This document shows, one piece after another, positions 8,539-61,458 of a stretch of 64,000 bases of DNA (its first letter is position 1; each line of letters begins with the position of its first letter). A program made the position numbers and the translations under genes. Where the stretch lies: NCBI GenBank assembly GCA_035687145.1, contig DASRYM010000013.1, positions 11,677-75,676 on the forward strand. The letters run 5' to 3'. The notes under the pieces were generated by a model. That model was not told where the DNA came from. It was given only the letters and a program-made list of their open reading frames with translations, and did not search any database. This DNA is from Candidatus Zixiibacteriota bacterium. GTDB lineage: Bacteria; Chloroflexota; Limnocylindria; QHBO01.

Positions 8539-10044
8539 ATGCTGCGGTGGTCCATCGTGAACGCGCGTGCCCACGCCTCGTCCCTTCCCCTCCTTCGCCT
8601 CGCCCTGGCCGCCGGATCCGTGGCGCTCGTCGGGTTGTGCCTGTTGCTATCCGCCTCGCTGGTCCAGGCGACCCATGGCCCGGACATGACGATCGCCAAG
8701 ACGGCATCCGTTACGAGCATCCCTGCGGGCGGCAGCTACAGCTACACGATGACCATCACCAACACGGGCCACTCGACGGCGACGTCGGTCGTGCTCACCG
8801 ACAGCACCATCGAGCCCGACGTCGAGATCGACTTCGGGTCCCTTGAGCTGTCGCCCTCGGGCATCGGCTCGTGCACGTGGAAGCTGTTTCAGGGAGATCC
8901 GAACAACCTGATGTGCAGCTTTCCGACGATCGCCACGGGCGCCTCGATCACCGTGACCTTCGACGTGACCGCACCGGCCGTGACCTGCCCCCGGGTGCGG
9001 AACACTGCGACGGTGACGGCCGCAAATGAGCCTTCGGGTAACACCGGGAACAACACGGCGATCGTGAACGTGAACATGACCGGCTGCCCGTCAGCCACGC
9101 CGACGCCGACCGGATCGCCGACGCCGCAGCCCTCGCCGCCGACCGTCTCGCGCATCTTCGGGGCTGATCGGTATGCGACGGCCGTGGAGCTGTCGAAGCG
9201 CCTCACGCCTTCGCCGGGCACGGGCGTCAGCTCGGTGTACGTGGCGACCGGCGAGAACTTCCCTGACGCCCTGGCCGGTGCTCCCGCCGCCGCGAAGCGG
9301 AACACCTCCATCCTGCTGGTGCGCCGCACGTCGGTGCCGACGGTGACGCGAACCGAGCTGCTGCGGCTCAAGCCACAGACCATCTTCGTGCTGGGCGGCA
9401 CGAGCGTGATCTCGGACGCGGTGGCCGCGGAGCTGAGCATGCTGACGCGTGACGGAGCCGGGACCGTGACCCGGCTGGCGGGCAGTGACCGCTACGCCAC
9501 CGCCGGCCAGGTGGTGGGCAACGCGTTCACCTCAGCCGAGGCGCTGATCGTGGCCACCGGCGAGAACTTCCCTGACGCGCTCGCTGGCAGCGCGGCGGCA
9601 TCCGACGAGGGCATGCCCATCCTGCTGGTGAAGCGCGACAACATCCCGCCGGCCACTGTCGCCCAGCTGAACAACCTCGATCCGGCACGCATCTTCGTGC
9701 TGGGCGGCACCTCGGTGGTGAGCCAGGCCGTGGAGGACGCGCTGCGGTCCTTTGCCCCATCGGTCACCAGGATCGCCGGCGATGATCGGTACCTCACGGC
9801 CGTCGGTGTGACGAAGGCCTTCTATCCGCCGAACGTGGCCCACCTGTTCGTTGCCACCGGCATCAACTTCCCGGACGCGCTGGTGGCCGGGCCGCACGGT
9901 GACCCCGTGCTTCTGACCGCGCCGGGTGCCCTGCCGTCCGCGGTTGCCGGCGAGGCATCGCGCCTGAACCCGCCGAGCATCCACGTCCTGGGCGGCCCCG
10001 GCGTGGTGAGCGAAACGGTGCTGAACCAGCTCAGGGCAACCTGA
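8539..10044 (+). CDS. Secreted protein: DUF11-like repeat domain + three cell-wall-binding (CWB2-like) repeats
   Basis: Signal-like N-terminus (LLRLALAAGSVALVGLCLLLSASLVQA). The DUF11-like segment reads TIAKTASVTSIPAGGSYSYTMTITNTGHSTATSVVLTD. A Pro/Thr linker follows. Then three repeats of the form R(I/L)(F/A)G.DRY.TA ... VATGENFPDALAG ... ILLV ... IFVLGGTSV. An alternative start is at 8500. Confidence 0.75.
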   Translation: MLRWSIVNARAHASSLPLLRLALAAGSVALVGLCLLLSASLVQATHGPDMTIAKTASVTSIPAGGSYSYTMTITNTGHSTATSVVLTDSTIEPDVEIDFGSLELSPSGIGSCTWKLFQGDPNNLMCSFPTIATGASITVTFDVTAPAVTCPRVRNTATVTAANEPSGNTGNNTAIVNVNMTGCPSATPTPTGSPTPQPSPPTVSRIFGADRYATAVELSKRLTPSPGTGVSSVYVATGENFPDALAGAPAAAKRNTSILLVRRTSVPTVTRTELLRLKPQTIFVLGGTSVISDAVAAELSMLTRDGAGTVTRLAGSDRYATAGQVVGNAFTSAEALIVATGENFPDALAGSAAASDEGMPILLVKRDNIPPATVAQLNNLDPARIFVLGGTSVVSQAVEDALRSFAPSVTRIAGDDRYLTAVGVTKAFYPPNVAHLFVATGINFPDALVAGPHGDPVLLTAPGALPSAVAGEASRLNPPSIHVLGGPGVVSETVLNQLRAT

Positions 10045-10097: not shown

Positions 10098-10418
10098 TCA
10101 CCCCACCGACGCCGGAGTGGCGGAATCGGCAGACGCGTCGGTCTCAAACACCGATGCCCGCGAGGGCGTGTGGGTTCGACCCCCACCTCCGGCACCATGC
10201 GCATCGTCGTCGGCCAGGAGCCGCAGCAGCGCGAGCGCCGTCGCGAGCGTGGGCGCCCGCTCACCCTGCGCCAGGCGGCATACGGTCGTGTGATCCAGCC
10301 CGGTCCGCAGGGCAACCATGCGGAAACTGAGACCACGAGCGGCAACCGCGTCGCGCAGCCATCCGGCGAAGTCCCCCGCAAGGATGCGAGGCGGAATGTT
10401 GACCTCTTGATTGAGCAC
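10098..10418 (-). CDS. XRE-family HTH protein whose 3' tail runs antisense through the tRNA-Leu gene
   Basis: 106 aa with a GTG start. The HTH core is GLSFRMVALRTGLDHTTVCRLAQGERAPTLATALALL. TACCGT lies 6 nt upstream of the GTG. The last 33 codons are the reverse complement of the tRNA, so the functional protein is probably the first ~70 aa plus a fortuitous tail. Confidence 0.5.
   Translation of the reverse strand: MLNQEVNIPPRILAGDFAGWLRDAVAARGLSFRMVALRTGLDHTTVCRLAQGERAPTLATALALLRLLADDDAHGAGGGGRTHTPSRASVFETDASADSATPASVG
10111..10197 (+). tRNA. tRNA-Leu (anticodon CAA), class II with long variable arm, CCA encoded
   Basis: Acceptor stem GCCGGAG/CTCCGGC. Anticodon stem TCGGT/ACCGA with loop CTCAAAC. 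Variable arm TGCCCGCGAGGGCGTG. T arm GTGGG-TTCGACC-CCCAC. Discriminator A plus CCA. Folded by hand. Confidence 0.9.
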
Positions 10419-12297: not shown

Positions 12298-12437
12298 GCC
12301 GCGAAGCCTACACACTGGCGTGGGTGCCGGAGCTCTCGCCGAGATGTGAGGAAACCAGGCTCTTGGTGGGGCCGCAGTTCAGACGTCCCTGCTCCTGGGG
12401 TTTCTCGTCGTTCGCGGGCCTGCCGAACCGCCAGCCT

Positions 12438-12695
12438 TCAGCTCATCCCTTGCCCGTCCCCCCGGCCAGCGATCCAGAACAACAAGCCAACCACCGCAGC
12501 CGTCGCCCCTCCGGCGGCGAGGCTCCATCCGGCATCGCACGGCACGGTGTAGCCGAACACGGAGGAACACTCAGGAGGCTCGGTCGTGATCCCGCTCGCC
12601 GGGAAGAGGAGCACAAGCACGACGAGCCCCACGAGCGATGCGATCGCGATCTTCGCCAGAGGCCACGAGCGGCCTTGGCGGTCCGTCTGATTCAT
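12438..12695 (-). CDS. Small membrane protein, hypothetical (2 TM)
   Basis: 85 aa. The ATG is preceded by GGAGGGA. There are two hydrophobic helices (IAIASLVGLVVLVLLF and AAVVGLLFWIA). Confidence 0.5.
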   Translation of the reverse strand: MNQTDRQGRSWPLAKIAIASLVGLVVLVLLFPASGITTEPPECSSVFGYTVPCDAGWSLAAGGATAAVVGLLFWIAGRGDGQGMS

Positions 12696-12902
12696 GGTGG
12701 TCCCTCCGCGTGGCAGTTTCGGCTGCCGAGTGGGTGGCTATCACGAGACGCCAATGAGCGTCTCCGGGTTGCAGAGGCCGCCGACACCTGGGCCGACTGC
12801 GACACGTACACGCCGTCAACGAACCGGGCGCCGCCGATCGGCGGCTACCTGTCCCTCGTGCCCACTGTGAGCCGGGCCTTGCTGACCAATACCGGCATCG
12901 CC

Positions 12903-13082
12903 ATGCCGCCGCTCACGCTCGAGGTCTACCAGTATCCGGTTGGCCTCCTGCTGTGGATCGGGGCTGCCGTCATGGACCTCGGTCTCGTTGCGCTGATCTG
13001 GCCGACACGTTCCAACCCGTCGATTGTCGAGGGCCCGCGTCGGTCGATGGACCAGGTGGAGGTGTCGCCGCAGCCTCGATGA
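12903..13082 (+). CDS. Possible small membrane protein
   Basis: 59 aa from ATG 12903, with one TM helix (VGLLLWIGAAVMDLGLVALIW). Third codon positions are mostly G/C. No ribosome-binding site or family was recognised. Confidence 0.25.
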   Translation: MPPLTLEVYQYPVGLLLWIGAAVMDLGLVALIWPTRSNPSIVEGPRRSMDQVEVSPQPR

Positions 13083-13173
13083 ACTGCGCTGGAGACGCTC
13101 CGGCTAAGCCGCGGCTTGGCTCTGAACGAGCCGACACGGTTTCTTCTTGCGTCGCTTCAGGTTCGCGCACTTG

Positions 13174-13202
13174 GCGCAGCCGGTGTGAATTGCGACAGTT
13201 CG
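13174..13202 (+). repeat. Family-A repeat, solo arm (GCGCAGCCGGTGTGAATTGCGACAGTTCG)
   Basis: Matches the consensus GCGCACCTGGTGTGAAT-ACGACC-NN-TCG, which is seen about 10 times in the window. Confidence 0.6.
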
Positions 13203-13254
13203 TCCGCTGCCAGCGTGGTCGGCTCGCCGCGTGGCTCTACGCGTCAGCGGCTCC

Positions 13255-13396
13255 ACGGGTCGCATCACATGGAGTGACCGTTGAGCGCCCGACAGCCGCC
13301 TCGAACGGTCCCAACTCACGCCAGACGGGCGCTTGCGACGCTCCAACGGCCTTCCGCTGCGCTCATTGCGCGCCTGGTGTGAATCACGACCGCTCG
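13255..13396 (+). mobile_element. Family-A hairpin element (~142 bp, MITE-like), copy 1
   Basis: A degenerate left arm (ACGGGTCGCATCACATGGAGTGAC) is inverted relative to the right arm (GCGCGCCTGGTGTGAATCACGACCGCTCG). The interior aligns with copy 18219..18359 (AACTCACGCC, CTCCAACGGCC, CATTG). Confidence 0.6.
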
Positions 13397-13464
13397 TTGG
13401 ACCGAGCTCCGCCGATAAGGGTGCGGTAAGCCGAAGGTAAGGTGCTGCGGGGCATCATCGGTCC

Positions 13465-14196
13465 GTGTACACCAACCTTCCGCGCGCGGTCCGCTTTCTC
13501 CGTCTGCGGAAAGGTTGGTCGCAGGCCGTCCTGGCGACCCGTGCAGGCGTCTCCCGGGAGCTGGTGTCGCGGATCGAGCGCGATCGCGTGGCCGGTATCA
13601 CCTTCGGCGGAGTGGACCGGGTCCTCGCGGCACTGGACGCCAACCTGCGCGCGATGGCGGCATGGCAGGGGGAGCAGCTCGACCGTCTCATGGACGCGGG
13701 TCATGCGGCACTCCAGCAGGTCGTTGCCGAGATGCTCGCCACGCTCGGCTGGAGCGTCCGGGCCGAGGTCAGCTTCAACCGCTACGGCGACCGCGGGCGC
13801 GTGGACCTCGTTGCGTTCCATCCGATTCCGCGCGTCGTGCTGCTGGTCGAGGTCAAGACCGCGCTGGGCGACCTGCAGGAGACCCTGGGCCGCCTCGATG
13901 TGAAGGCGCGGATCGGCCGTCCACTCGCGCAGGACCTCGGATGGACCGGTGTCCTGGCCGTCATCCCGGTACTGGTCATCGCCGATGCGCGTCCGGCACG
14001 CAGGGTGGTGGCGAGCCATTCGGCGCTCTTCAGCCGGTTCTCACTCCGCGGCCGTCAGGCGATGGCGTGGCTCCGGCGGCCGGTCCAGCCACCGCCGACC
14101 GGCATCCTCTGGTTCGCGAACCGACCCGATTCACATGAGGTGACCATTGCGCGCCGCAAACGGGCGCCCAAGCGTCTCAACTCAGACGTGGCGTGA
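13465..14196 (+). CDS. XRE-HTH fused to a PD-(D/E)xK-like (YraN/Hjc-like) nuclease fold; function unknown
   Basis: 243 aa with a GTG start; CATCAT lies 6 nt upstream. The N-terminal HTH is LRKGWSQAVLATRAGVSRELVSRIERDR. The central segment GDRGRVDLVAFHPIPRVVLLVEVKT matches the D...(E/D)xK motif. Family-A repeats flank it on both sides, and its stop TGA lies inside one repeat core. Confidence 0.65.
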   Translation: MYTNLPRAVRFLRLRKGWSQAVLATRAGVSRELVSRIERDRVAGITFGGVDRVLAALDANLRAMAAWQGEQLDRLMDAGHAALQQVVAEMLATLGWSVRAEVSFNRYGDRGRVDLVAFHPIPRVVLLVEVKTALGDLQETLGRLDVKARIGRPLAQDLGWTGVLAVIPVLVIADARPARRVVASHSALFSRFSLRGRQAMAWLRRPVQPPPTGILWFANRPDSHEVTIARRKRAPKRLNSDVA

Positions 14197-14210
14197 ATTG
14201 AAACCGCTCG
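14188..14210 (+). repeat. Family-A repeat, degenerate solo arm overlapping the stop codon of the HTH-nuclease gene
   Basis: GTGGCGTGAATTGAAACCGCTCG. The upstream TCTCAACTCAGACG resembles the interior TCCCAACTCACGCCAGACG of copy 1. Confidence 0.5.
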
Positions 14211-14232
14211 ACCCCGGTCGCCCGGCGTCAAT

Positions 14233-14261
14233 GCGCACCTGGTGTGAATGACGACCGTTCG
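14233..14261 (+). repeat. Family-A repeat, solo arm (GCGCACCTGGTGTGAATGACGACCGTTCG)
   Basis: Near-consensus copy lying between the convergent HTH-nuclease and Rieske oxygenase genes. Confidence 0.65.
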
Positions 14262-14271
14262 CGGGGGGCGG

Positions 14272-15372
14272 TCACTCGGCGAGGAACTCCCTCACCAGGT
14301 TCTGGAAGTGGTAGACGCCGTTCTCGCGCTTGGCGCTGAACCGCCCGGTGTCGTAGGCCCGCGAGCGCAACCCGCGCTGCACCTGCTCGCAGATGACGAT
14401 GTCCTCCTGCTGGATCTCGTCGCTGAAGGCGATCGTCTGCTGCATCGACTCCCACCCCGGCCCGGTGCCCGGCTCGGCGAAGAACCACTCGAAGATCGTC
14501 AGCGTCCGCTCGTGGCCGAGGGGCAGGATGACGTTGGAGGACATGTTGTCCTGGTAGATGTTGAACATCGTGTTCGGGAAGATCCAGTAGTAGAGGGCGT
14601 CCTCCTCGGCCCCGGGCTGGCGGAGGTAGCGCCGGTCGACTCCGAGCTGCTCCCCGGGCTTCAGTTCCCGGATCGGCGCGTGCTGCTTGGAGTAGTAGCG
14701 GAACTCCTCAACGCGGTAGGCGTCATAGTCCAGCTCCCTGTAGAGCTGCGGGTGCGCGATCGGCAGGTGGTAGCCCTCCAGGTAGTTGTCGACGTACACC
14801 TTCCAGTTGCACTCGATCACGTAGTCCCGCCGCTCCACCAGGCGCATGCGGTCCACGTCGTAGCCGGCGGCGGCCACCTCCTCGGGGATGGCACCCATGA
14901 CCTCCTGCAGGCTGGGGGCATCATCGGAGAGGCAGACGAACACGAACGGACCCCAGGTGTCGACCCGCACCGGGACCAGTCCGAAGTCCTCCTTGCGGAA
15001 GTTCTCGGTCTCCTCCATCTCGGGAGCGGCGCGCAGGCAGCCGTCCAGCCCGTAGGTCCAGCCGTGGTAGCGGCACTGCAGCGACTTGCGGTTCCCCTTG
15101 GTCAGGGCCACCTGGCCGGCCCGGTGACGGCAGACGTTGTAGAAGGCGCGCAGCTCGCCGTTCAGGTCGCGGGTGATCACCACCGGCTCGTCGACCACGG
15201 TCACCGGGACGAAGTCGCCCACGCGCTGGAGGTCATCGGTCCGGGCCACCAGCTGCCAGGTGCGGGCGAAGATGCGCTCCTTCTCGAGCTCAAGGTAGTG
15301 CGGATCCAGGTAATAGCGAGCCGGCAGCGTCTCGGCCCGGCTCAGCGGGGTGGTCACGCGGGAGGTCGTCAT
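14272..15372 (-). CDS. Rieske [2Fe-2S] non-heme iron oxygenase, alpha-subunit type
   Basis: 366 aa. The Rieske motif is CRHRAGQV...CRYHGWTY, followed by a C-terminal catalytic domain. TACACT lies 7 nt upstream of the ATG. The substrate is unknown. Confidence 0.85.
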   Translation of the reverse strand: MTTSRVTTPLSRAETLPARYYLDPHYLELEKERIFARTWQLVARTDDLQRVGDFVPVTVVDEPVVITRDLNGELRAFYNVCRHRAGQVALTKGNRKSLQCRYHGWTYGLDGCLRAAPEMEETENFRKEDFGLVPVRVDTWGPFVFVCLSDDAPSLQEVMGAIPEEVAAAGYDVDRMRLVERRDYVIECNWKVYVDNYLEGYHLPIAHPQLYRELDYDAYRVEEFRYYSKQHAPIRELKPGEQLGVDRRYLRQPGAEEDALYYWIFPNTMFNIYQDNMSSNVILPLGHERTLTIFEWFFAEPGTGPGWESMQQTIAFSDEIQQEDIVICEQVQRGLRSRAYDTGRFSAKRENGVYHFQNLVREFLAE

Positions 15373-17301: not shown

Positions 17302-18176
17302 GCGTCGACGCAGCCAACCCCGAGCACACCCACGAGCAGGAGCACCGGCTCGGCCGACCAGCTCCGCCCGGCAGCGGGTATCCGGTCGGCAGCCCGATGC
17401 CCGACCACCTCGGCGATGTGATCGTCCGGACCACCGGCCTGGAGAAGTACTTCGGCACGAACCACGTCCTGCGCGGCGTCGACATGGAAGTGCGCCAGCG
17501 GGAGGCGGTGATGATCATCGGCCGTTCGGGGAGCGGGAAGACGACCTTCCTGCGATGCCTGAACTTCCTGGAGGAGCCCACCATCGGCTGGATCGAGATC
17601 GACGGCGTCCGGGTCGAGGCCGATCCGCTGCGCGCGCGCAGCCGCGCGCACCAGGAGCAGATCCGTCAGATCCGGCTGCGCGCCGGGATGGTGTTCCAGG
17701 ACTTCGCCCTCTTCCCGCACATGACGGCGCTCGAGAACTGCATCGAGGCGCCGGTCCGCGTGCGCGGTCTGCCCGAGGAACAGGCGGTGGCCCTGGCCGA
17801 GAAGTTCCTGGACAAGGTGGGGCTGCTGGAGAAGCGCGACGAGTACCCGTCGCGGCTGTCCGGCGGGCAGAAGCAGCGGGTGGCCATCGCCCGCGCGCTG
17901 TGCATGGAGCCCAAGGTGCTGCTCTTCGACGAGCCCACCTCGGCGCTCGACCCTGAGCTCATCGGCGAGGTGCTCAACGTCATGGAGGAGCTGGCCCACG
18001 AGGGCACGACCATGATCGTGGTCACCCACGAGATGCATTTCGCGCGCGAGGCGGCCGACCGCGTCGTCTTCATGGACCAGGGCGTCATCGCCGAGCAGGG
18101 ACCCCCGGAGCAGATCCTGGAGGCGCCGACCCAGGAGGCGACGAAGCGGTTCCTGCGCCGGTTCCTGCTCACCTAG
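17298..18176 (+). CDS. Amino acid ABC transporter ATP-binding protein
   Basis: 292 aa from ATG 17298. Walker [10 protein letters not shown], signature [15 protein letters not shown], Walker [13 protein letters not shown] ~45-aa N-terminal extension precedes the ATPase core. Confidence 0.9.
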
Positions 18177-18218
18177 CCCCGACGGGCGGCCTGCTCCTCC
18201 GGCCTCACGAGCCGGCGC

Positions 18219-18359
18219 CGTCGCAAATTCACATCAGGTGCACATTGAGCGGCGAGAGGGGCCGTTGAAGGGTCGTAACTCACGCCCGGTGCGCGGTACG
18301 CACCTCCAACGGCCGATCCGGGCACCCATTGGTCAGCAGGTGTGAACCACGACCATTCG
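18219..18359 (+). mobile_element. Family-A hairpin element (~141 bp, MITE-like), copy 2
   Basis: The left arm CGTCGCAAATTCACATCAGGTGCAC is inverted relative to the right arm CAGCAGGTGTGAACCACGACCATTCG. The interior is homologous to copy 13255..13396. It is intergenic, after the ABC ATPase gene. Confidence 0.6.
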
Positions 18360-18502
18360 ACTGTGCCGAGCCGGCCGACGGCCGACGCCCCCGAACGCAA
18401 CCAAACCGCACCCCGGTGCGTCTGAGCAGCAGGACGGGCACGGCGATTGCTGGTACCGACCCGCGCCGGGCGAATCCGCCCACACCATGGAGGGGAGAAC
18501 CA

Positions 18503-34019: not shown

Positions 34020-34151
34020 GGTACCTCACTTGCTGCGAGTCCGCGCACAAGCATAGGCACCGATTCCTGACACGATCGGTCAGGTTCCTGCCCGCAGCTG
34101 TCAGGAATACGGTCGAACATGGGTCCGGAACTCGCACTCCGAAGGAGCCAC

Positions 34152-34868
34152 ATGGCGGAGTATCCGATCATCCTGGTGCCCGGCTTCTGGCTGGGTGCCT
34201 GGGCCTGGGACGAGGTCGCGGAAATCCTCCGCGCCGAGGGCCACGACGTCACCGCGTTGACCCTCCCCGGTCTGGAGGCGCCCGATTCCGACCGGTCCGC
34301 GATCACGGCCGAGGATCACGTGCAGGCCATCTGCGAGGCCGTCGAGGCGGCCGGACGCCCGGTGGTGCTGGTCGTCCACAGCGGTGCCGGCTTCAGCGGT
34401 TACGCGGCCAGCGACCGCTGCCCGGACCGGATCGCGGCCATGGTCTACGTCGACACCGGCCCGGGCATCGGCGCCATGGACCCCGAATTCGAGGGCGTCG
34501 AGAAGCCGATGGTCTGGTCCGAGCTCGAGGAGACCGAGAACCTGGAGGGGATCAGCGAGCAGCAGAAGGCCGTCTGGCGGCAGCGCGCCGTCCCACAGCC
34601 CGGCGGCGTCATCCGCGGTTCCGTACCGCTGACGAATGACGCGCGGCTGGACATTCCGAGCACGGTGATCGCCACCGCATTCCCGAGCACCGACTACCAG
34701 GAGTTCCTGCGGGCGGAGAACCCGGCATTCCTGGCCGGGCTCAATGAGCTGCGCAACGTGACGTGGGTCGACCTTCCCACCAGCCACTGGCCGATGTGGT
34801 CGCGCCCACGCGACCTGGCGCGGATCATCGGCGAGATCGCCAGCGTGCCGGCGGGCGCTCGAGCCTGA
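34152..34868 (+). CDS. Alpha/beta hydrolase
   Basis: 238 aa from ATG 34152, with GAAGGAG upstream. It has ILVPGFWLGAWAW and the elbow VHSGAG. Confidence 0.8.
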   Translation: MAEYPIILVPGFWLGAWAWDEVAEILRAEGHDVTALTLPGLEAPDSDRSAITAEDHVQAICEAVEAAGRPVVLVVHSGAGFSGYAASDRCPDRIAAMVYVDTGPGIGAMDPEFEGVEKPMVWSELEETENLEGISEQQKAVWRQRAVPQPGGVIRGSVPLTNDARLDIPSTVIATAFPSTDYQEFLRAENPAFLAGLNELRNVTWVDLPTSHWPMWSRPRDLARIIGEIASVPAGARA

Positions 34869-34924
34869 TGTCGCCGCGCCGCTGCCGTGTCAGGGTGGGG
34901 TGCGGTGCCAAGCCTGGTGCGCGG

Positions 34925-35018
34925 CGAAACGTCGTCATTCACACCAGGTGCGCCTTATCCATGAATCGAGGCCGCTGAAGGCACCTAACGGTCACCTGGT
35001 GTGAATTACGACCACTCG
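34925..35018 (+). mobile_element. Family-A hairpin element (short, 94 bp), copy 3
   Basis: The left arm CGAAACGTCGTCATTCACACCAGGTGCGC is inverted relative to the right arm GGTCACCTGGTGTGAATTACGACCACTCG. The interior GAGGCCGCTGAAGGCACCTAAC matches copy 2. Confidence 0.65.
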
Positions 35019-35036
35019 CTGGGGCATCGGCGCCAA

Positions 35037-35069
35037 TAACGGTCACCTGGTGTGAATTACGACCACTCG
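35037..35069 (+). repeat. Family-A right arm duplicated in tandem (51-bp period)
   Basis: TAACGGTCACCTGGTGTGAATTACGACCACTCGC at 35037 is identical over 34 nt to the copy at 34986. The sequences diverge after that. Confidence 0.7.
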
Positions 35070-35157
35070 CGGGACGGAGACGACGCCCGGGGAGCCCCGG
35101 CATCGGTCCCTCGAGCGCCGTGTCAGTCTCCAGGGATTGAACCGCGCGCCGTCGCGG

Positions 35158-35451
35158 TCAGAGGCCGTCGCCCGCCGGTTCGTTGTGGTCGTGGACGTGC
35201 GCCTCCTTGGCGTGGTCGTCCGCCTCCTGCCCCGGATCGTGCTCGTGGGCATGGATCAGCGGCGCGTGGTTGTGCTCGTGGCTGTGGTAGTGGGCGCGGT
35301 GCTCGAACTCGCCGAGCAGCCCGCCGGTGTGGTGGTGGGTGACGTGGTAGTGGTCGTGGGTATGCACGTCGGCCGGATGCGCATGCTCCTGCCGCCGTGC
35401 TTCCTCACCCACCGTGGTCTGCGCGGTCTGGCCGCTCGTCTGGTAGGTCAT
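35158..35451 (-). CDS. Histidine-rich small protein (22 His in 97 aa)
   Basis: From ATG 35451 within ORF 35158..35853. It contains HAHPADVHTHDHYHVTHHH...HRAHYHSHEHNHAPLIHAHEHD...HVHDHN. It is the last gene of the PadR operon. Confidence 0.6.
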   Translation of the reverse strand: MTYQTSGQTAQTTVGEEARRQEHAHPADVHTHDHYHVTHHHTGGLLGEFEHRAHYHSHEHNHAPLIHAHEHDPGQEADDHAKEAHVHDHNEPAGDGL

Positions 35452-35501
35452 GGTCAGCGAGCGCTGCAGACACCGTACCTCTTCCCGGCATCGCGCCGGC
35501 C

Positions 35502-36506
35502 TCAGGCCGACCCGCTGGTGACGGGGCGGCCGTCCGAGGCTGCCGAGCGACCGGCACGGCGGAAGACCGCCACGATCTCCCAGGCGGTGATGCCCACCAC
35601 GGCGGCGGCCAGCAGGAGCATCGCCGGGCCGGTGCCGTCGGCCAGCGCGGGCCAGCCGAGCGCCTCGGCGAAAGCGGGGTTGATCAGGGCGCCGCTCAGC
35701 GCCAGCCAGGCGACCGGCACCGCGAAGGCGACCTGCAGGATGGCGTGGACGAAGGCCAGGACGGCGTTCCACCGCCCCACGACGAACGCCATGACCTGGA
35801 GGGCGGCCAGCGCCACCAGGACCGCGATCAGGATCGGCAGCCACCCGTCCCACAGCCCCGGGTTGAAGAGCGGGATGGAGTCGCCGCGCTCATCGGTGAA
35901 CCACGCGGGCTGCTGCAGGAACAGGATGCCACCGATGGTCAGCGAGGTCGTCACGAGCTCCCCCACCATCTCGCCCGCGCCGACACGGACGTTCGGCAGT
36001 GCCGGCAGCATGTCCACCGTCCACTGGCGGCTGGCCTTCTGGACCTCGTCCCTCGCGCCGCGCATCGCGTCGGCGCGCTCCACCACCGCGAAGGTGGCCG
36101 TCACCCAGAAGACCATGTGCACGGCGGCATTCCACGCCCCACCGACGCCAGCGGCCAGGGCATCCCAGTAGTCTCCGCCGCCGGCGAGCTTCAGCGCCGC
36201 CACCACCAGGCCCACGATCGGCACACCGGTGGCCAGCAGCATCACCAGGATGTGGCGGTAGACCAGGAACAGGTCCGGACCGATGAGGTGGAAGGGCCGC
36301 CCGGCCAGATCCGCGGCGAGGCGTGATGGCTCGCCCATCGCCTCCAGGACGGCCTTCTCGGCGGCCAGGCGTTCCTCTCCCGCCGCGGTGCGGTCCTGGA
36401 CAGCCTCCTCGATCGATGAGCGGAACTCGCGCTCAACGTCGGCGCGCTGACGCTCGGGGATGCCGCGCAGGACGGCGGCCAGGTATCGGTCAGTCAGCGA
36501 GGTCAT
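35502..36506 (-). CDS. PadR-associated polytopic membrane protein (HAAS / permease-prefix-domain-like N-terminus)
   Basis: About 334 aa from ATG 36506. The cytoplasmic helical N-terminus is LTDRYLAAVLRGIPERQRADVEREFRSSIEEAV, followed by at least 6 TM helices. The start overlaps the PadR 3' end by 17 nt. Confidence 0.7.
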   Translation of the reverse strand: MTSLTDRYLAAVLRGIPERQRADVEREFRSSIEEAVQDRTAAGEERLAAEKAVLEAMGEPSRLAADLAGRPFHLIGPDLFLVYRHILVMLLATGVPIVGLVVAALKLAGGGDYWDALAAGVGGAWNAAVHMVFWVTATFAVVERADAMRGARDEVQKASRQWTVDMLPALPNVRVGAGEMVGELVTTSLTIGGILFLQQPAWFTDERGDSIPLFNPGLWDGWLPILIAVLVALAALQVMAFVVGRWNAVLAFVHAILQVAFAVPVAWLALSGALINPAFAEALGWPALADGTGPAMLLLAAAVVGITAWEIVAVFRRAGRSAASDGRPVTSGSA

Positions 36507-36916: not shown

Positions 36917-37082
36917 GCCCCGACTGCTGGCGCCGAATCACCACCTGTTGGTGGTAAAGGCGAGGAACCTGCCGCTTCGTCGCGAATCCACCAGCCGGTG
37001 ACCACTGCGGACGAGAAAGGGGCCTGATTTCGGGTCCAGCGCTCGGGAACGTCGCCTTTACCACCAGCCAGTGGTGACTCGG
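36917..37082 (+). mobile_element. Family-B element (~166 bp, MITE-like), copy 1
   Basis: Terminal inverted repeats are CGAATCACCACCTGTTGGTGGTAAAGGCGA and TCGCCTTTACCACCAGCCAGTGGTGACTCGG. There is a central GC hairpin. It ends 12 nt from the SRPBCC stop codon. Confidence 0.65.
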
Positions 37083-37093
37083 ACCGGGAAGGT

Positions 37094-37552
37094 TCAGCCG
37101 GTGGGAGCGCGCCCCTCCATCATCGCGACGGCGCGGGCCATGGCGCGTCGCATAGAGCTGCGCAGGTTGCGCTCGATCATCGGCGCCATGAACCCCATCA
37201 GCCGCGGGTGCTTGAGCTCGAGGGTGTTCGTTTGCGTCCAGTGGGTCCCGTCGCCGTTGGACTCGTAGGCCCACGATCCCCCGCCACCGCCGACCCACGA
37301 CGAGTCGACGTCCACGAACGCCGCGCTCGTCCGCTCACCTCGGCGGAAGAGCTGGTACTCCAGCGTCATGCGGCCGACGGACCTGATCTCGAGCCGGACG
37401 CGAAGCGGCTCGTCGGAGAGAACCTCGGCCGACACGACGGAGTCGTCCCACTCGGCGCGGTGCGCGTAGTCCTGGGTGAAATCGAAGACGGCGACCCGGT
37501 CGCGCGCGACATCGACCGTCTCGGAGACGGTCACCGTGCGTCGAGTTGCCAT
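37094..37552 (-). CDS. SRPBCC (START/polyketide cyclase-like) family protein
   Basis: 152 aa with VDVARDRVAVFDFTQDYAHRAEWD. Family-B elements flank it on both sides. Confidence 0.75.
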   Translation of the reverse strand: MATRRTVTVSETVDVARDRVAVFDFTQDYAHRAEWDDSVVSAEVLSDEPLRVRLEIRSVGRMTLEYQLFRRGERTSAAFVDVDSSWVGGGGGSWAYESNGDGTHWTQTNTLELKHPRLMGFMAPMIERNLRSSMRRAMARAVAMMEGRAPTG

Positions 37553-37622
37553 GCCGCGACGGTATCGCGGCGGCGCCGCGGGTCGAATCCGACGAAGGAC
37601 GTATCGCCGGCCCGACGGACGG

Positions 37623-37791
37623 CCGTCTGCTGGCGTTGGTGCCGATTCACCAGCAGGTGGTGGTAAAGGCGAGGAACCAGCCAGTTCGTCGCGAATTCAC
37701 CAGCCGGTGACCTCTTCCGACCAAGAAGGGGCCCGGATTCGGCCCCCGCGCTCGGGATCGTCGCCTTTACCACCAGGTGGTGGTGACTTCG
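37623..37791 (+). mobile_element. Family-B element, copy 2
   Basis: Same architecture and orientation as copy 1, but more diverged (GATTCACCAGCAGGTGGTGGTAAAGGCGA ... TCGCCTTTACCACCAGGTGGTGGTGACTTCG). Confidence 0.65.
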
Positions 37792-37805
37792 TCACCCTCC
37801 GGGTC

Positions 37806-37973
37806 GCCCCCGACTGCTGGCGTCGAATCACCACCTGTTGGTGGTAAAGGCGAGGAACCTGCCACTTCGTCGCGAATCCACCAGCCGGGGACCACTAGGG
37901 GCGACGATTGGGGCTCGAATTCGGCCCCAGCGCCCAGGATCGTCTCCTTTACCACCAGCTGGTGGTGACTCGG
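37806..37973 (+). mobile_element. Family-B element, copy 3
   Basis: It lies 14 nt after copy 2. It is nearly identical to copy 1 in its first ~85 nt and its last ~35 nt, and differs in the centre. Confidence 0.65.
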
Positions 37974-37997
37974 TGGCGTCCGGAGCGGCCGAAGCGG

Positions 37998-59379: not shown

Positions 59380-61458
59380 CTACGGGTCGATGGCCAGGAT
59401 CGCGCGCAGGTGGGAGACCGCGCCGCTGCCCACTGCGGACGCGCCGCCGATGACGGTGACCGCGGTCGGATGCAGCCGGATCATGGCCTCGCCGGTCTCC
59501 ATGGGCACCACGCCGGGGCGGACCAGCAGCAGCGGCACGTCGAGGCGGCCGGCCGCCGTGCCGCCGGCGATGCCGTCCGGGAACGCGGCGCCGGTGGCCA
59601 CCAGGATGCGGTTGGCACGCGGCCACAGGCGCGACACCTCGGCGGCGGTGCCATAGCGGTCGGCACCCGCCAGGCGGCTGACCGGACCGGTGGTGTGAGC
59701 GTCCAGCGCGTTGAGCACCGCGTTCGAGATCGCCGCGGTGCCGCCCAGCACGTAGATCCGTCCCGGCCTGAGGCGCTGCAGCTCGGCGATGGTGGCCGAC
59801 GGCAGCTCGTCGCGCCGGGTGAGGAGCAGCGGTCCGCCCAGGTGGGCGGCCGCCGCCACCCCTGCCAGCGCATCGGCGAACGTCGCTCCGGTGGCGATGA
59901 AGGCCACCGGTACCCCGATCGGGAAGGTGTCCCGGCTGACGTGGGCGGCGGTCTGGTAGCGATCGGCCCCGTCGCGTCGCTCGACGGTGCCAGTCGTGTA
60001 CGCACCAAGGTCGTTCAGCACGCCCTGCGAGATCGCTGCGGTGCCGCCCAGCACCACGATCCGCGCGGGGTTCAGGCGCTCGAGCTCGGCCGCGGTGGCC
60101 GGCGGAATGGCGGTGCGGGTCACCAGCAGCAGCGGCCCGTTCTCGTGGGCGGCCGCCGCCCCGCCGGTCAACGCATCGGCGAAGTCCGCCCCGGTCGCCA
60201 CGTATACCACACCGACGCCGGGCGATGTCGTGCGCTGGCTGACCACGGCGGCGGTGCCGTAGCGGTCGGCGCCAGCCCAGCGGTCGACGAGTGGGGTGGT
60301 GACCGCCACGCGAATGACGCGGTCGTTGCTGCCGTTCGAGGTGGTCAGGTACAGCTGCCCGGCCGGGCCGCGGGCCGCCGCGCGCAGCCGGCCCCAGCTG
60401 CCGTTGAAGTGGACGGCGACCTGGGTGGCCGTGGCCCCGTCGCCCGACATAATGAAGCGGCGCAGGTCGGCCTCCTTGAGCTGCGCCACGAACAGGTGCC
60501 CGTCCCAATCGGCCCACGGGCTGCCGTCGGCGAAGGCCAGGCCGGAGGTGGCGATGGTCGGCACGCCGGAGGTCCAGGCCGGGGTCAGGTACTCCGATGC
60601 CGGCCCGCAGACCGGGTGCGCCAGGCGGGGCACGCCGGCGCCGGTGTAGCACGGCCAGCCGTAGTTCCCGCCGGCCTGGATGCGGTTGATCTCGTCGTCG
60701 CGGTCCGGTCCGTGCTCCGCGGTGTACACGCGGTCGGTCCCTGGCTGGAAGGCGATGCCCTGAGGGTTGCGGTGGCCCATGGAGAAGACCGCGGTCCGCG
60801 CGGATGCGCCCTCCATGATCGGGTTGTCGGACGGGATGCTGCCGTCGCGGTGGATGCGCAGCACCTTGCCGTTCAGGCTGCTCGGGTTCTGCGCCAGGAG
60901 GGCGTCGTTCGCGTCGCCCATGGTGATCCACAGCCGTCCGAAGCGGTCCATCTCCAGGGCACAGCCGTTGTGGATGACGTTGGCCCGCATGCCGGTCAGC
61001 AGGACCCGCCCGTCGGTCCATGACAGGTCGGCGGCGACCCGATAGCGCAGCACCTGGTTGGTCCAGGCTCCGCCCACACTGCGCGAGGCGCAGACGTATA
61101 CGAACCGGTTGGCGGCGAAGCCGACGTCCACCGCGATCCCCATCAGGCCTGCCTCCCCCTCGGCGCGCACGTTCGGGATGGTGATCGTCCGCAGCAGCGG
61201 CGCGCCGGCCGCCCCACTGGCGTAGATGCGGACCCGACCGGGGCGCTCGGTCACCAGCAGGTGGCCATCGGGCGTGAAGGCCACGTCCCAGGGATGGACG
61301 AGCCCGTCCTGCACGACGGTGGGGGTCATGGTGGGAGGGGCGGCTGCGACCGGCGCCGCCGCGGGCCAGCCGGTCGCGAGGATGGCGCCGACCGCGAGCG
61401 CCATCAGGACACGGGTTCGTGCTCCCCGGCCGGACGGCAGCCGGAGTCCGGGATCCAC
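59380..61458 (-). CDS. Secreted PQQ-dependent sugar (glucose/sorbosone) dehydrogenase-like beta-propeller + three CWB2-like cell-wall-binding repeats
   Basis: About 692 aa from GTG 61458, with TACACT 6 nt upstream. This start gives the signal peptide [30 protein letters not shown]. The propeller has [31 protein letters not shown] and GGNYGWP. The C-terminus has three GADRY(G/Q)TAA...ATGA.FADAL repeats. Alternative starts are at 61500 and 61404. Confidence 0.8.

Follow-up and report, generated by a model that had tools for sequence, protein, structure and literature searches.

A 64,000-nucleotide (nt) stretch of DNA from assembly GCA_035687145.1 (contig DASRYM010000013.1, positions 11,677-75,676, forward strand; hereafter, the window), deposited as Candidatus Zixiibacteriota bacterium and placed by GTDB in Bacteria; Chloroflexota; Limnocylindria; QHBO01, contains several copies of a ~148-nt repeat unit, here denoted E, one of which is fused to the 3' end of a gene for a 243-amino-acid (aa) protein that combines an XRE-type helix-turn-helix (HTH) domain with a predicted PD-(D/E)xK nuclease domain. 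The unit has a defined anatomy, with arms in fixed arrangement; across relatives, the gene occupies a syntenic position, the arms are paralog-specific, the arm inside the coding sequence co-varies with the one downstream of it, and there are gene-free copies whose borders coincide exactly with the ends of the unit. The reading that we prefer, to which we assign a probability of about 0.45, is that E and this gene form a partnership comparable to the REPIN-RAYT systems, which consist of doublets of repetitive extragenic palindromic (REP) sequences and REP-associated tyrosine transposases and are found in Gammaproteobacteria and other bacteria, but with a different enzyme.

Under this reading, E would be the partner of a chromosomal, vertically inherited XRE-HTH-PD-(D/E)xK gene, with one copy of the unit permanently fused to the 3' end of that gene. 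The protein would bind and cut the arms and drive the copying of the unit: the HTH domain would recognise the ~30-nt arms, the nuclease domain would cut at or near them, and cutting combined with host repair or replication would lead to duplication or homogenisation of E units, with the outcome that the lineage-specific repeat population stays matched to its cognate gene.

The HTH-nuclease gene and the repeat unit fused to it

The gene (13465-14196, + strand) encodes an XRE-type HTH domain at approximately residues 5-60, a PD-(D/E)xK fold at approximately residues 66-221 and a disordered basic tail at residues 222-243. The N-terminal domain is recognised by the Pfam families HTH_31 (31.7 bits, cut-off 27) and HTH_3 (29.7 bits, cut-off 23), and a sequence profile search of the PDB matched the HTH domain alone, to controller proteins, SinR and HipB. 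Pfam yields HTH families only, with no family match for the central domain; searches of the protein against PADLOC, PHROGs and NCBIfam produced generic HTH matches and a sub-threshold YraN hint, with no transposase above noise in NCBIfam. The AlphaFold2 (AF2) model of the 243-aa protein has a mean predicted confidence (pLDDT) of 88.4, with values below 50 in the tail, which is predicted to be disordered; for the central domain of the model, the best Foldseek match is the R2 restriction-like endonuclease (RLE) domain, followed by restriction enzymes, AF1548 and NucS, and BstEII is matched as well. Four residues, E101, D114, E129 and K131, which make up an E...D...ExK motif, are invariant across 52 homologs. 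Judged by profiles and model together, the protein is an XRE-HTH joined to a PD-(D/E)xK fold, with predicted nuclease activity.

The folded part of the protein ends in ...LWF, and the gene-linked unit, E2 (14116-14263, + strand; nhmmer E 5e-36), starts directly after those codons; it is therefore the repeat unit that supplies the codons of the tail and the stop. The left, inverted arm of E2 (14116-14150) encodes (A)NRPDSHEVTIA, the middle arm is located at 14177-14210, and the right arm (14228-14263) is non-coding. An earlier reading of the region made from the sequence only had placed the stop codon TGA (14194-14196) within the GTGAAT core of a repeat copy at 14188, which is the middle arm of E2, and had likened the nucleotides before it to the interior of the upstream element; both observations hold, the resemblance extending to the last ~80 nt of the gene, which align end to end with the upstream unit E1. 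Among 23 orthologs, third positions of the arm codons 216-226 are conserved to the same extent (0.71) as first and second positions, compared with 0.55-0.58 in the gene body, and the AT-rich codons GAT-TCA are retained despite a genomic GC content of ~68%, so that the constraint acts on the DNA motif rather than on the peptide. As an aside, comparison with the closest relative (locus L081, 328-1153 versus 1260-2006) gives 76% nucleotide identity for the HTH-nuclease gene versus 88% for the adjacent dioxygenase gene; by this measure, the former is evolving faster than its neighbour.

The sequence-only reading described five repeat arms around the gene, and all of them are present. Four direct arms (13169-13202, 13363-13396, 14177-14210 and 14228-14261) form one family, D1, with 65-100% identity, and searches with arm cores return 5-7 matches in the window versus 0-0.4 in shuffled sequences: a 24-nt consensus with up to three mismatches matches five times in the window and never in the shuffles, and shorter cores match 6-7 times against 0.01-0.4 expected. 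The arms are real and lie far above chance. They belong to the larger unit E, the outer ends of which are ~30-nt terminal inverted repeats (GCGAACGGTCGTCATTCACACCAGGTGCGC and its complement), with an inverted left arm, a central arm or small palindrome, and a direct right arm; the arms keep a fixed spacing, which is 64 + 51 nt for the units E2 and E3, and 115 nt for E1 and E4. With an nhmmer profile made from full-length units, four complete copies (E 1e-30 to 5e-36) and one fragment were located in the window, all four complete copies on the + strand.

Upstream of the nuclease gene lies the gene-free unit E1 (13255-13398, +; E 1e-30, model positions 7-149), with an inverted left arm at ~13255-13290, a decayed middle arm at ~13305-13335 and a right arm at 13363-13396. 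The inverted, degenerate repeat copy noted earlier at 13255-13278 is the left end of this full unit and closely matches the inverted arm within the gene. It had been paired with the arm ending at 13396 into a 142-bp hairpin element; the element is confirmed as a unit, but its RNA fold is weak, with a z-score of -1.3 and a minimum-energy structure that leaves the arms 13255-13278 and 13368-13396 unpaired with each other. The RNA folding z-score of E2 is -0.8, likewise no better than shuffles, and that of E3 is -2.3, corresponding to a long hairpin. The fragment (13164-13203, +; model positions 109-148 only, E 5e-4) consists of a right arm of the D1 family.

The other two gene-free units, E3 and E4, were, like the inverted arm within the gene (14116-14150), absent from the sequence-only reading. 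E4 (18217-18361, +; E 5e-33) occupies the spacer 3' of an ABC-transporter ATPase gene that ends at 18176, and E3 (34924-35072, +; E 3e-33; arms 34924-34958, 34985-35019 and 35036-35070) is located between two convergent genes, an alpha/beta hydrolase gene (34119-34868, +) and an open reading frame (ORF; 35158-35853, -). The left arm of E3 is 91% complementary to the right arm of E2 across 33 nt. When read in the frame of the gene, E1 and E3 give decayed versions of the protein tail, with the in-frame stop placed as in the nuclease gene; E3 yields RRHSHQVRLIHESRPLKAPNGHLV*.

The GC content of the segment, previously described as visibly lower than that of its surroundings, is 0.66-0.70 against 0.63-0.75 nearby, so that the dip is marginal. 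At gathering thresholds, Rfam produced a single match in the whole window, a tRNA, and none for E; neither an intrinsic terminator pattern nor a sigma-70 promoter was detected in 12900-14500, the promoter search being a weak test for this phylum. The window contains neither a second paralog nor units of other paralog types, and the window-type arm (CACCTGGTGTGAATNACGAC and CCTGGTGTGAATNNCGACCNYTCG) had no match in two metagenome scans.

Gene, arms and gene-free copies across Limnocylindria

The nuclease family has 574 detectable members, the majority of which are 241-243 aa long with a conserved tail. A one-genome-per-species scan yielded 167 loci, of which 80 were kept for comparison, all of these from the Chloroflexota class Limnocylindria or from mislabelled bins; the repeat counts given here are based on the 64 kb of the window genome and ~10 kb per relative. 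With respect to labels, NCBI names the source of an identical protein a 'candidate division Zixibacteria' metagenome-assembled genome (MAG), and several homolog-bearing MAGs are labelled Steroidobacteraceae; both labels look wrong given the synteny and the affiliation of all close relatives with Limnocylindria.

The neighbours of the window gene recur in 30 of the 80 loci, which come from different Limnocylindria genomes, and in 24 of these they recur on both sides: a CN-hydrolase gene upstream and a convergent gene for a Rieske ring-hydroxylating dioxygenase downstream. Thus, the gene is vertically inherited. The other loci comprise at least four further paralog groups (at least five overall), at least two of which (G2 and G3) have flanking sequence of their own that recurs from genome to genome. 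A single genome may contain as many as four diverged paralogs, ~40-55% identical to each other. Two assemblies from other samples encode the identical protein, and strain-level polymorphism sought in them was not found, the locus being 100% identical to the window.

Homologs do carry the arms, and the scenario under which homologs elsewhere never have them is clearly not what is seen. With the window-type profile, a gene-linked unit was detected in 10 other loci, starting 65-86 nt before the gene end. A profile-free comparison of the coding tail with the downstream DNA identified an inverted repeat at p<0.02 in 28 of 76 loci, where ~1.5 would be expected; each of the five paralog groups has such an inverted repeat across the stop codon, and its arm sequences are particular to the lineage. 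Changes in the coding arm go together with changes in the non-coding downstream arm: as a partner of the tail arm, the downstream DNA from the same locus ranks first in 15 of 78 loci (1 expected) and within the top 10% in 42 of the 78. The arm cores vary by lineage (GTGAAT, GGGAAT, GGGCAT, ATGAAT, GCAGTT and others) on a common frame, TAACGC-N~14-(A/T)TGGCAA. The recognition helix of the HTH domain also differs across the five groups (SRExxSR, SRGAVSLL, HRSTxSL, ISQxxxSR and VSASLVGLL), and this parallel between group-specific helices and group-specific arms is consistent with the arms being binding sites of the HTH domain, one of the options initially considered for them. Mismatches between arms are G.U-compatible in 81 cases in the mRNA sense versus 98 in the opposite sense, and 236 of 415 are transversions; together with folding of E1 and E2 that is no better than in shuffles, the lack of a G.U bias favours recognition of a DNA sequence over an RNA hairpin.

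In 11 of 74 loci, an additional unit immediately precedes the gene; several loci have extra units in tandem after it, and in others they lie a few kb away; an equivalent of E1 is found upstream of the gene in L081 (a 77%-identical relative), L001 and L002. Locus L062 contains a 161-nt copy that is 98-99% identical to the gene-linked unit and has its borders exactly at the outer arm ends, and in L022, an event of another kind has simply duplicated 180 nt in tandem. In five other species (L034, L024, L004, L012 and L020), the spacer orthologous to that of E4 is much shorter and has no unit; these spacers have diverged too far to reveal a target-site duplication. E3 and E4 begin 40-57 nt past the ends of ordinary genes and, therefore, leave no room for a decayed nuclease gene. 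Of 40 gene-linked units tested, the one in the window is the closest match for each of its three gene-free units; these also resemble one another, E1 and E4 forming the closest pair. By these similarities, the gene-free units are copies, produced by copying that is either ongoing or took place in the past.

An 8-nt direct repeat, GAGCCGGC, is located at 18209-18216 and 18368-18375, that is, 3 nt before and 8 nt after E4 rather than abutting it, and is probably due to chance rather than a relic of insertion.

Comparison with known systems and alternative explanations

In REPIN-RAYT systems, a single-copy, non-jumping, vertically inherited enzyme gene is flanked by cognate repeats that are found elsewhere in the genome, and several enzyme/repeat pairs, each with its own repeat sequence, may coexist in one genome (bioRxiv 10.1101/2021.07.10.451892). 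The gene linked to E shares this organisation: it is a vertically inherited enzyme gene at one fixed chromosomal site (30 loci, 24 with both sides) and is flanked by cognate repeats, with a unit joined to its 3' end in the window and in the 10 loci where the profile detects one; in both cases, the repeats are ~100-150 nt long, with inverted arms around a less conserved spacer; and there are multiple enzyme/repeat pairs. The differences lie, above all, in the enzyme, here an XRE-HTH combined with PD-(D/E)xK, whereas RAYTs possess the HUH motif and a catalytic tyrosine and are related to the IS200 transposase TnpA. The arms of E are ~30 nt long and ~75% self-complementary, unlike the tight GC-rich hairpins of REP; one E unit is fused to the ORF, for which it encodes the tail and stop; and the copy number seems modest, with four units and one fragment in 64 kb. 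The repeat population in REPIN-RAYT comprises tens to hundreds of extragenic copies, which depend on the enzyme for their presence. REP sequences are reportedly short, imperfect palindromes rich in GC, with a conserved GTAG-like tetranucleotide at the 5' end; the arms of E (GCGAACGGTCGTCATTCACACCAGGTGCGC) lack such a head, and no arm forms a hairpin by itself. We propose that the E system may work like REPIN-RAYT without being one, as it departs from the latter in the defining enzyme and in REP anatomy.

Bacterial miniature inverted-repeat transposable elements (MITEs), such as the Correia elements of Neisseria, RUP and ERIC/RU, are intergenic, often lie at the 3' ends of genes and can extend ORFs or supply their ends. 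With its length of 145-161 nt, borders set exactly by terminal inverted repeats of ~26-30 nt and no transposase of its own, E resembles these elements, but throughout a bacterial class it is tied to, and varies together with, one family of genes that do not encode a transposase, and neither a matching parental insertion sequence (IS) nor a target-site duplication was seen in the sequences covered here (64 kb of this genome and ~10 kb per relative); at the sole gene with arms, a complete unit is placed at the 3' end, not one end on each side. The suggestion that a MITE family had repeatedly hit this spot stands as far as the MITE-like unit and its gene-free copies are concerned but not for the link to the gene, which is no repeated accidental insertion because the gene-end unit is present in orthologs and the inverted repeat spans the stop in all five groups. 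C.Esp1396I, C.BclI, SinR and HipB are XRE proteins that bind inverted-repeat operators as dimers. Such controller and XRE regulators are the best sequence and structure match for residues 1-65 of the protein, but they are stand-alone HTH proteins of 70-110 aa, none of the matched proteins has a fused PD-(D/E)xK domain, and the operators that they bind do not take the form of dispersed 150-nt units. In fold, residues ~66-221 match the RLE of R2 non-LTR retrotransposons, AF1548, NucS, BstEII and Upx; this is a likeness at the level of the fold only (E ~1e-4, 12-20% identity), and there is no reverse transcriptase here.

Several observations weigh against a REPIN-RAYT-like partnership. Only 11 of 74 loci have an evident upstream unit, and distant copies within 5 kb are few; in ~40% of loci, the inverted repeat between tail and downstream DNA is not significant; no target-site duplication or insertion signature was detected at the L062 copy or at E1-E4; and E4 is nearer to the gene-free E1 than to E2, so that copying need not start at the gene-linked unit. 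Furthermore, we know of no PD-(D/E)xK enzyme that duplicates a repeat by itself.

An autoregulator of the ordinary XRE type, in which the nuclease-like domain would serve oligomerisation or sensing, with the arms as operators, the copies before the gene and across its 3' end serving autoregulation, the distant copies as a regulon and their spread independent of the protein, would account for a bona fide HTH domain similar to controller proteins, SinR and HipB, which bind inverted repeats, for the arms upstream of the gene in the window, L081, L001, L002 and other loci, and for recognition helices that differ among paralog groups in step with the arms. We consider it unlikely because the repeated entity is the whole ~148-nt unit, including spacers and a decayed coding tail with its stop, which goes beyond a binding site; the most constant position of the arms is the 3' end of the gene rather than a promoter; the position of E3, between convergent genes, is not one in which a promoter would be expected; the invariant E101, D114, E129 and K131 argue for an active nuclease; and E1 shows no sigma-70-like promoter, although this test is weak for the phylum. 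Conservation of the arms might instead reflect a function of E as RNA, whether as a long hairpin in the 3' UTR, for termination or stabilisation of the mRNA, or as a small RNA, with the arms maintained for pairing. The four units of the window share the + strand, E2, E3 and E4 each follow directly upon the end of a gene or ORF of that strand, and E3 forms a long hairpin (z -2.3), but mRNA-sense G.U-compatible mismatches are not in excess (81 versus 98; 236 of 415 transversions), the z-scores of E1 (-1.3) and E2 (-0.8) do not exceed those of shuffles, there is neither an Rfam match nor an intrinsic-terminator-like site, and the arm ends retain the specific sequence TAACGC...TGGCAA across paralogs, which is more than complementarity requires; such a role seems quite improbable.

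The link could also be a historical one, whereby the ancestral gene long ago received a MITE at its 3' end and kept it as tail, stop codon and terminator, and the gene-free units of today belong to a related MITE family moved by a transposase encoded elsewhere in the genome. The anatomy of E, an intergenic element of ~150 nt with terminal inverted repeats that encodes nothing by itself, fits this scenario, as does the greater similarity of E4 to E1 than to the gene-linked E2; furthermore, the window contains a second, unrelated ~150-nt palindromic family, so the genome tolerates elements of this kind. Against it, the arms are recognisable and co-vary across five paralog groups and at least 30 orthologs, far longer than neutral MITE remnants would be expected to last, the gene-free units of the window best match the gene-linked unit of their own genome, and fresh copies (98-99% identity in L062) sit beside the gene; on balance, this scenario appears rather unlikely. 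The earlier statement that no transposase or integrase was recognised in the window agrees with a Pfam scan of the eight flanking ORFs and the gene itself, in which none was found, a weak argument against the historical scenario since the scan was limited to those ORFs. Finally, the segment 13255-14261 had been suggested to be a small mobile or selfish element; as a cassette of the homing-endonuclease or IS type, it would carry its own nuclease gene between direct repeats. The gene body does lie between two direct-orientation E units in the window, L081, L001, L002, L032, L062 and other loci, and many of the metagenomic contigs with homologs are merely 1-2.5 kb long. This suggestion, to which we attach hardly any probability, is rejected on account of the fixed site between the CN-hydrolase and Rieske dioxygenase genes (30 loci from different genomes, both flanks conserved in 24), the diverged within-genome paralogs (~40-55% identical), each in its own conserved neighbourhood, and the two independent assemblies that are 100% identical across the locus; the upstream unit is absent from the majority of loci, and the GC content is not foreign. 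Neither the sporadic presence nor the near-identical multiple copies that characterise homing endonucleases and selfish genes are observed, and there is no adjacent cognate toxin in an operon as in type II toxin-antitoxin systems with a HipB/HigA-like antitoxin, the neighbours being the CN-hydrolase gene, an 85-aa ORF and the convergent Rieske dioxygenase gene.

If the REPIN-RAYT-like partnership is generalised, Limnocylindria would possess an independent counterpart of REPIN-RAYT, with vertically inherited XRE-HTH/PD-(D/E)xK nucleases that recognise, cut and propagate ~150-nt inverted-repeat units, one fused to each gene and thus tying the repeat physically to its enzyme, and with up to five such pairs per genome diverging in parallel; we advance this broader proposal tentatively, as the more doubtful of the two. 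To our knowledge, REPIN-RAYT is so far the main example of bacterial repeat populations that persist vertically with a dedicated non-jumping enzyme, and a literature search retrieved no publications on Limnocylindria repeats or on HTH/PD-(D/E)xK proteins linked to repeats. If true, the proposal would mean that the vertical lifestyle of repeat and enzyme evolved more than once, the second case involving an unrelated nuclease in a distant, largely uncultured phylum, and would make a new enzyme chemistry available to test. The fusion of repeat and ORF provides an experimental handle: as the arm is known for each paralog, the specificity of binding and cleavage can be predicted. Even if the mechanism is wrong, the analysis defines a PD-(D/E)xK family that had no name before, accounts for the repeats of the window and shows the annotation 'transcriptional regulator' to be incomplete.

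Flanking sequences and other repeats in the window

The spacer between the CN-hydrolase and nuclease genes (12310-13465 in the window) is ~1150 nt long, compared with 98-634 nt in other species, and holds E1, the partial arm, an ORF for a putative 85-aa membrane protein (12438-12695, -) and further unexplained sequence. In many syntenic loci, the HTH-nuclease gene is preceded by a conserved block of ~150 + 90 nt (for instance L001, 624-880, and L005, 4695-4844), which in L001 overlaps a 95-aa ORF on the - strand; in L019 (5975-6249), L029, L016 and L018, this block is found downstream of the nuclease gene instead, a displacement that suggests local rearrangement. The tRNA gene of the window (10111-10194; Rfam 55.5 bits) has the same relative position in many syntenic loci.

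The second repeat family (36925-37975) consists of three ~152-nt palindromic units at 36928-37079, 37637-37788 and 37818-37969, which are 68-84% identical and have arms that resemble CCGAATCACCACCTGTTGGTGGTAAAGGCGAGG; two of the units bracket a gene for a 152-aa Polyketide_cyc2 (SRPBCC) protein (37094-37552, -). This family was considered as the partner of another paralog and rejected, as it shows no similarity to any HTH-nuclease-linked unit; no copies of it were found across the 80 related loci. Two further regions, 59522-60301 and 9233-9887, each contain three ~300-nt tandem repeats with a period of 297-309 nt, which, if located inside coding sequence, could represent repeated protein domains.

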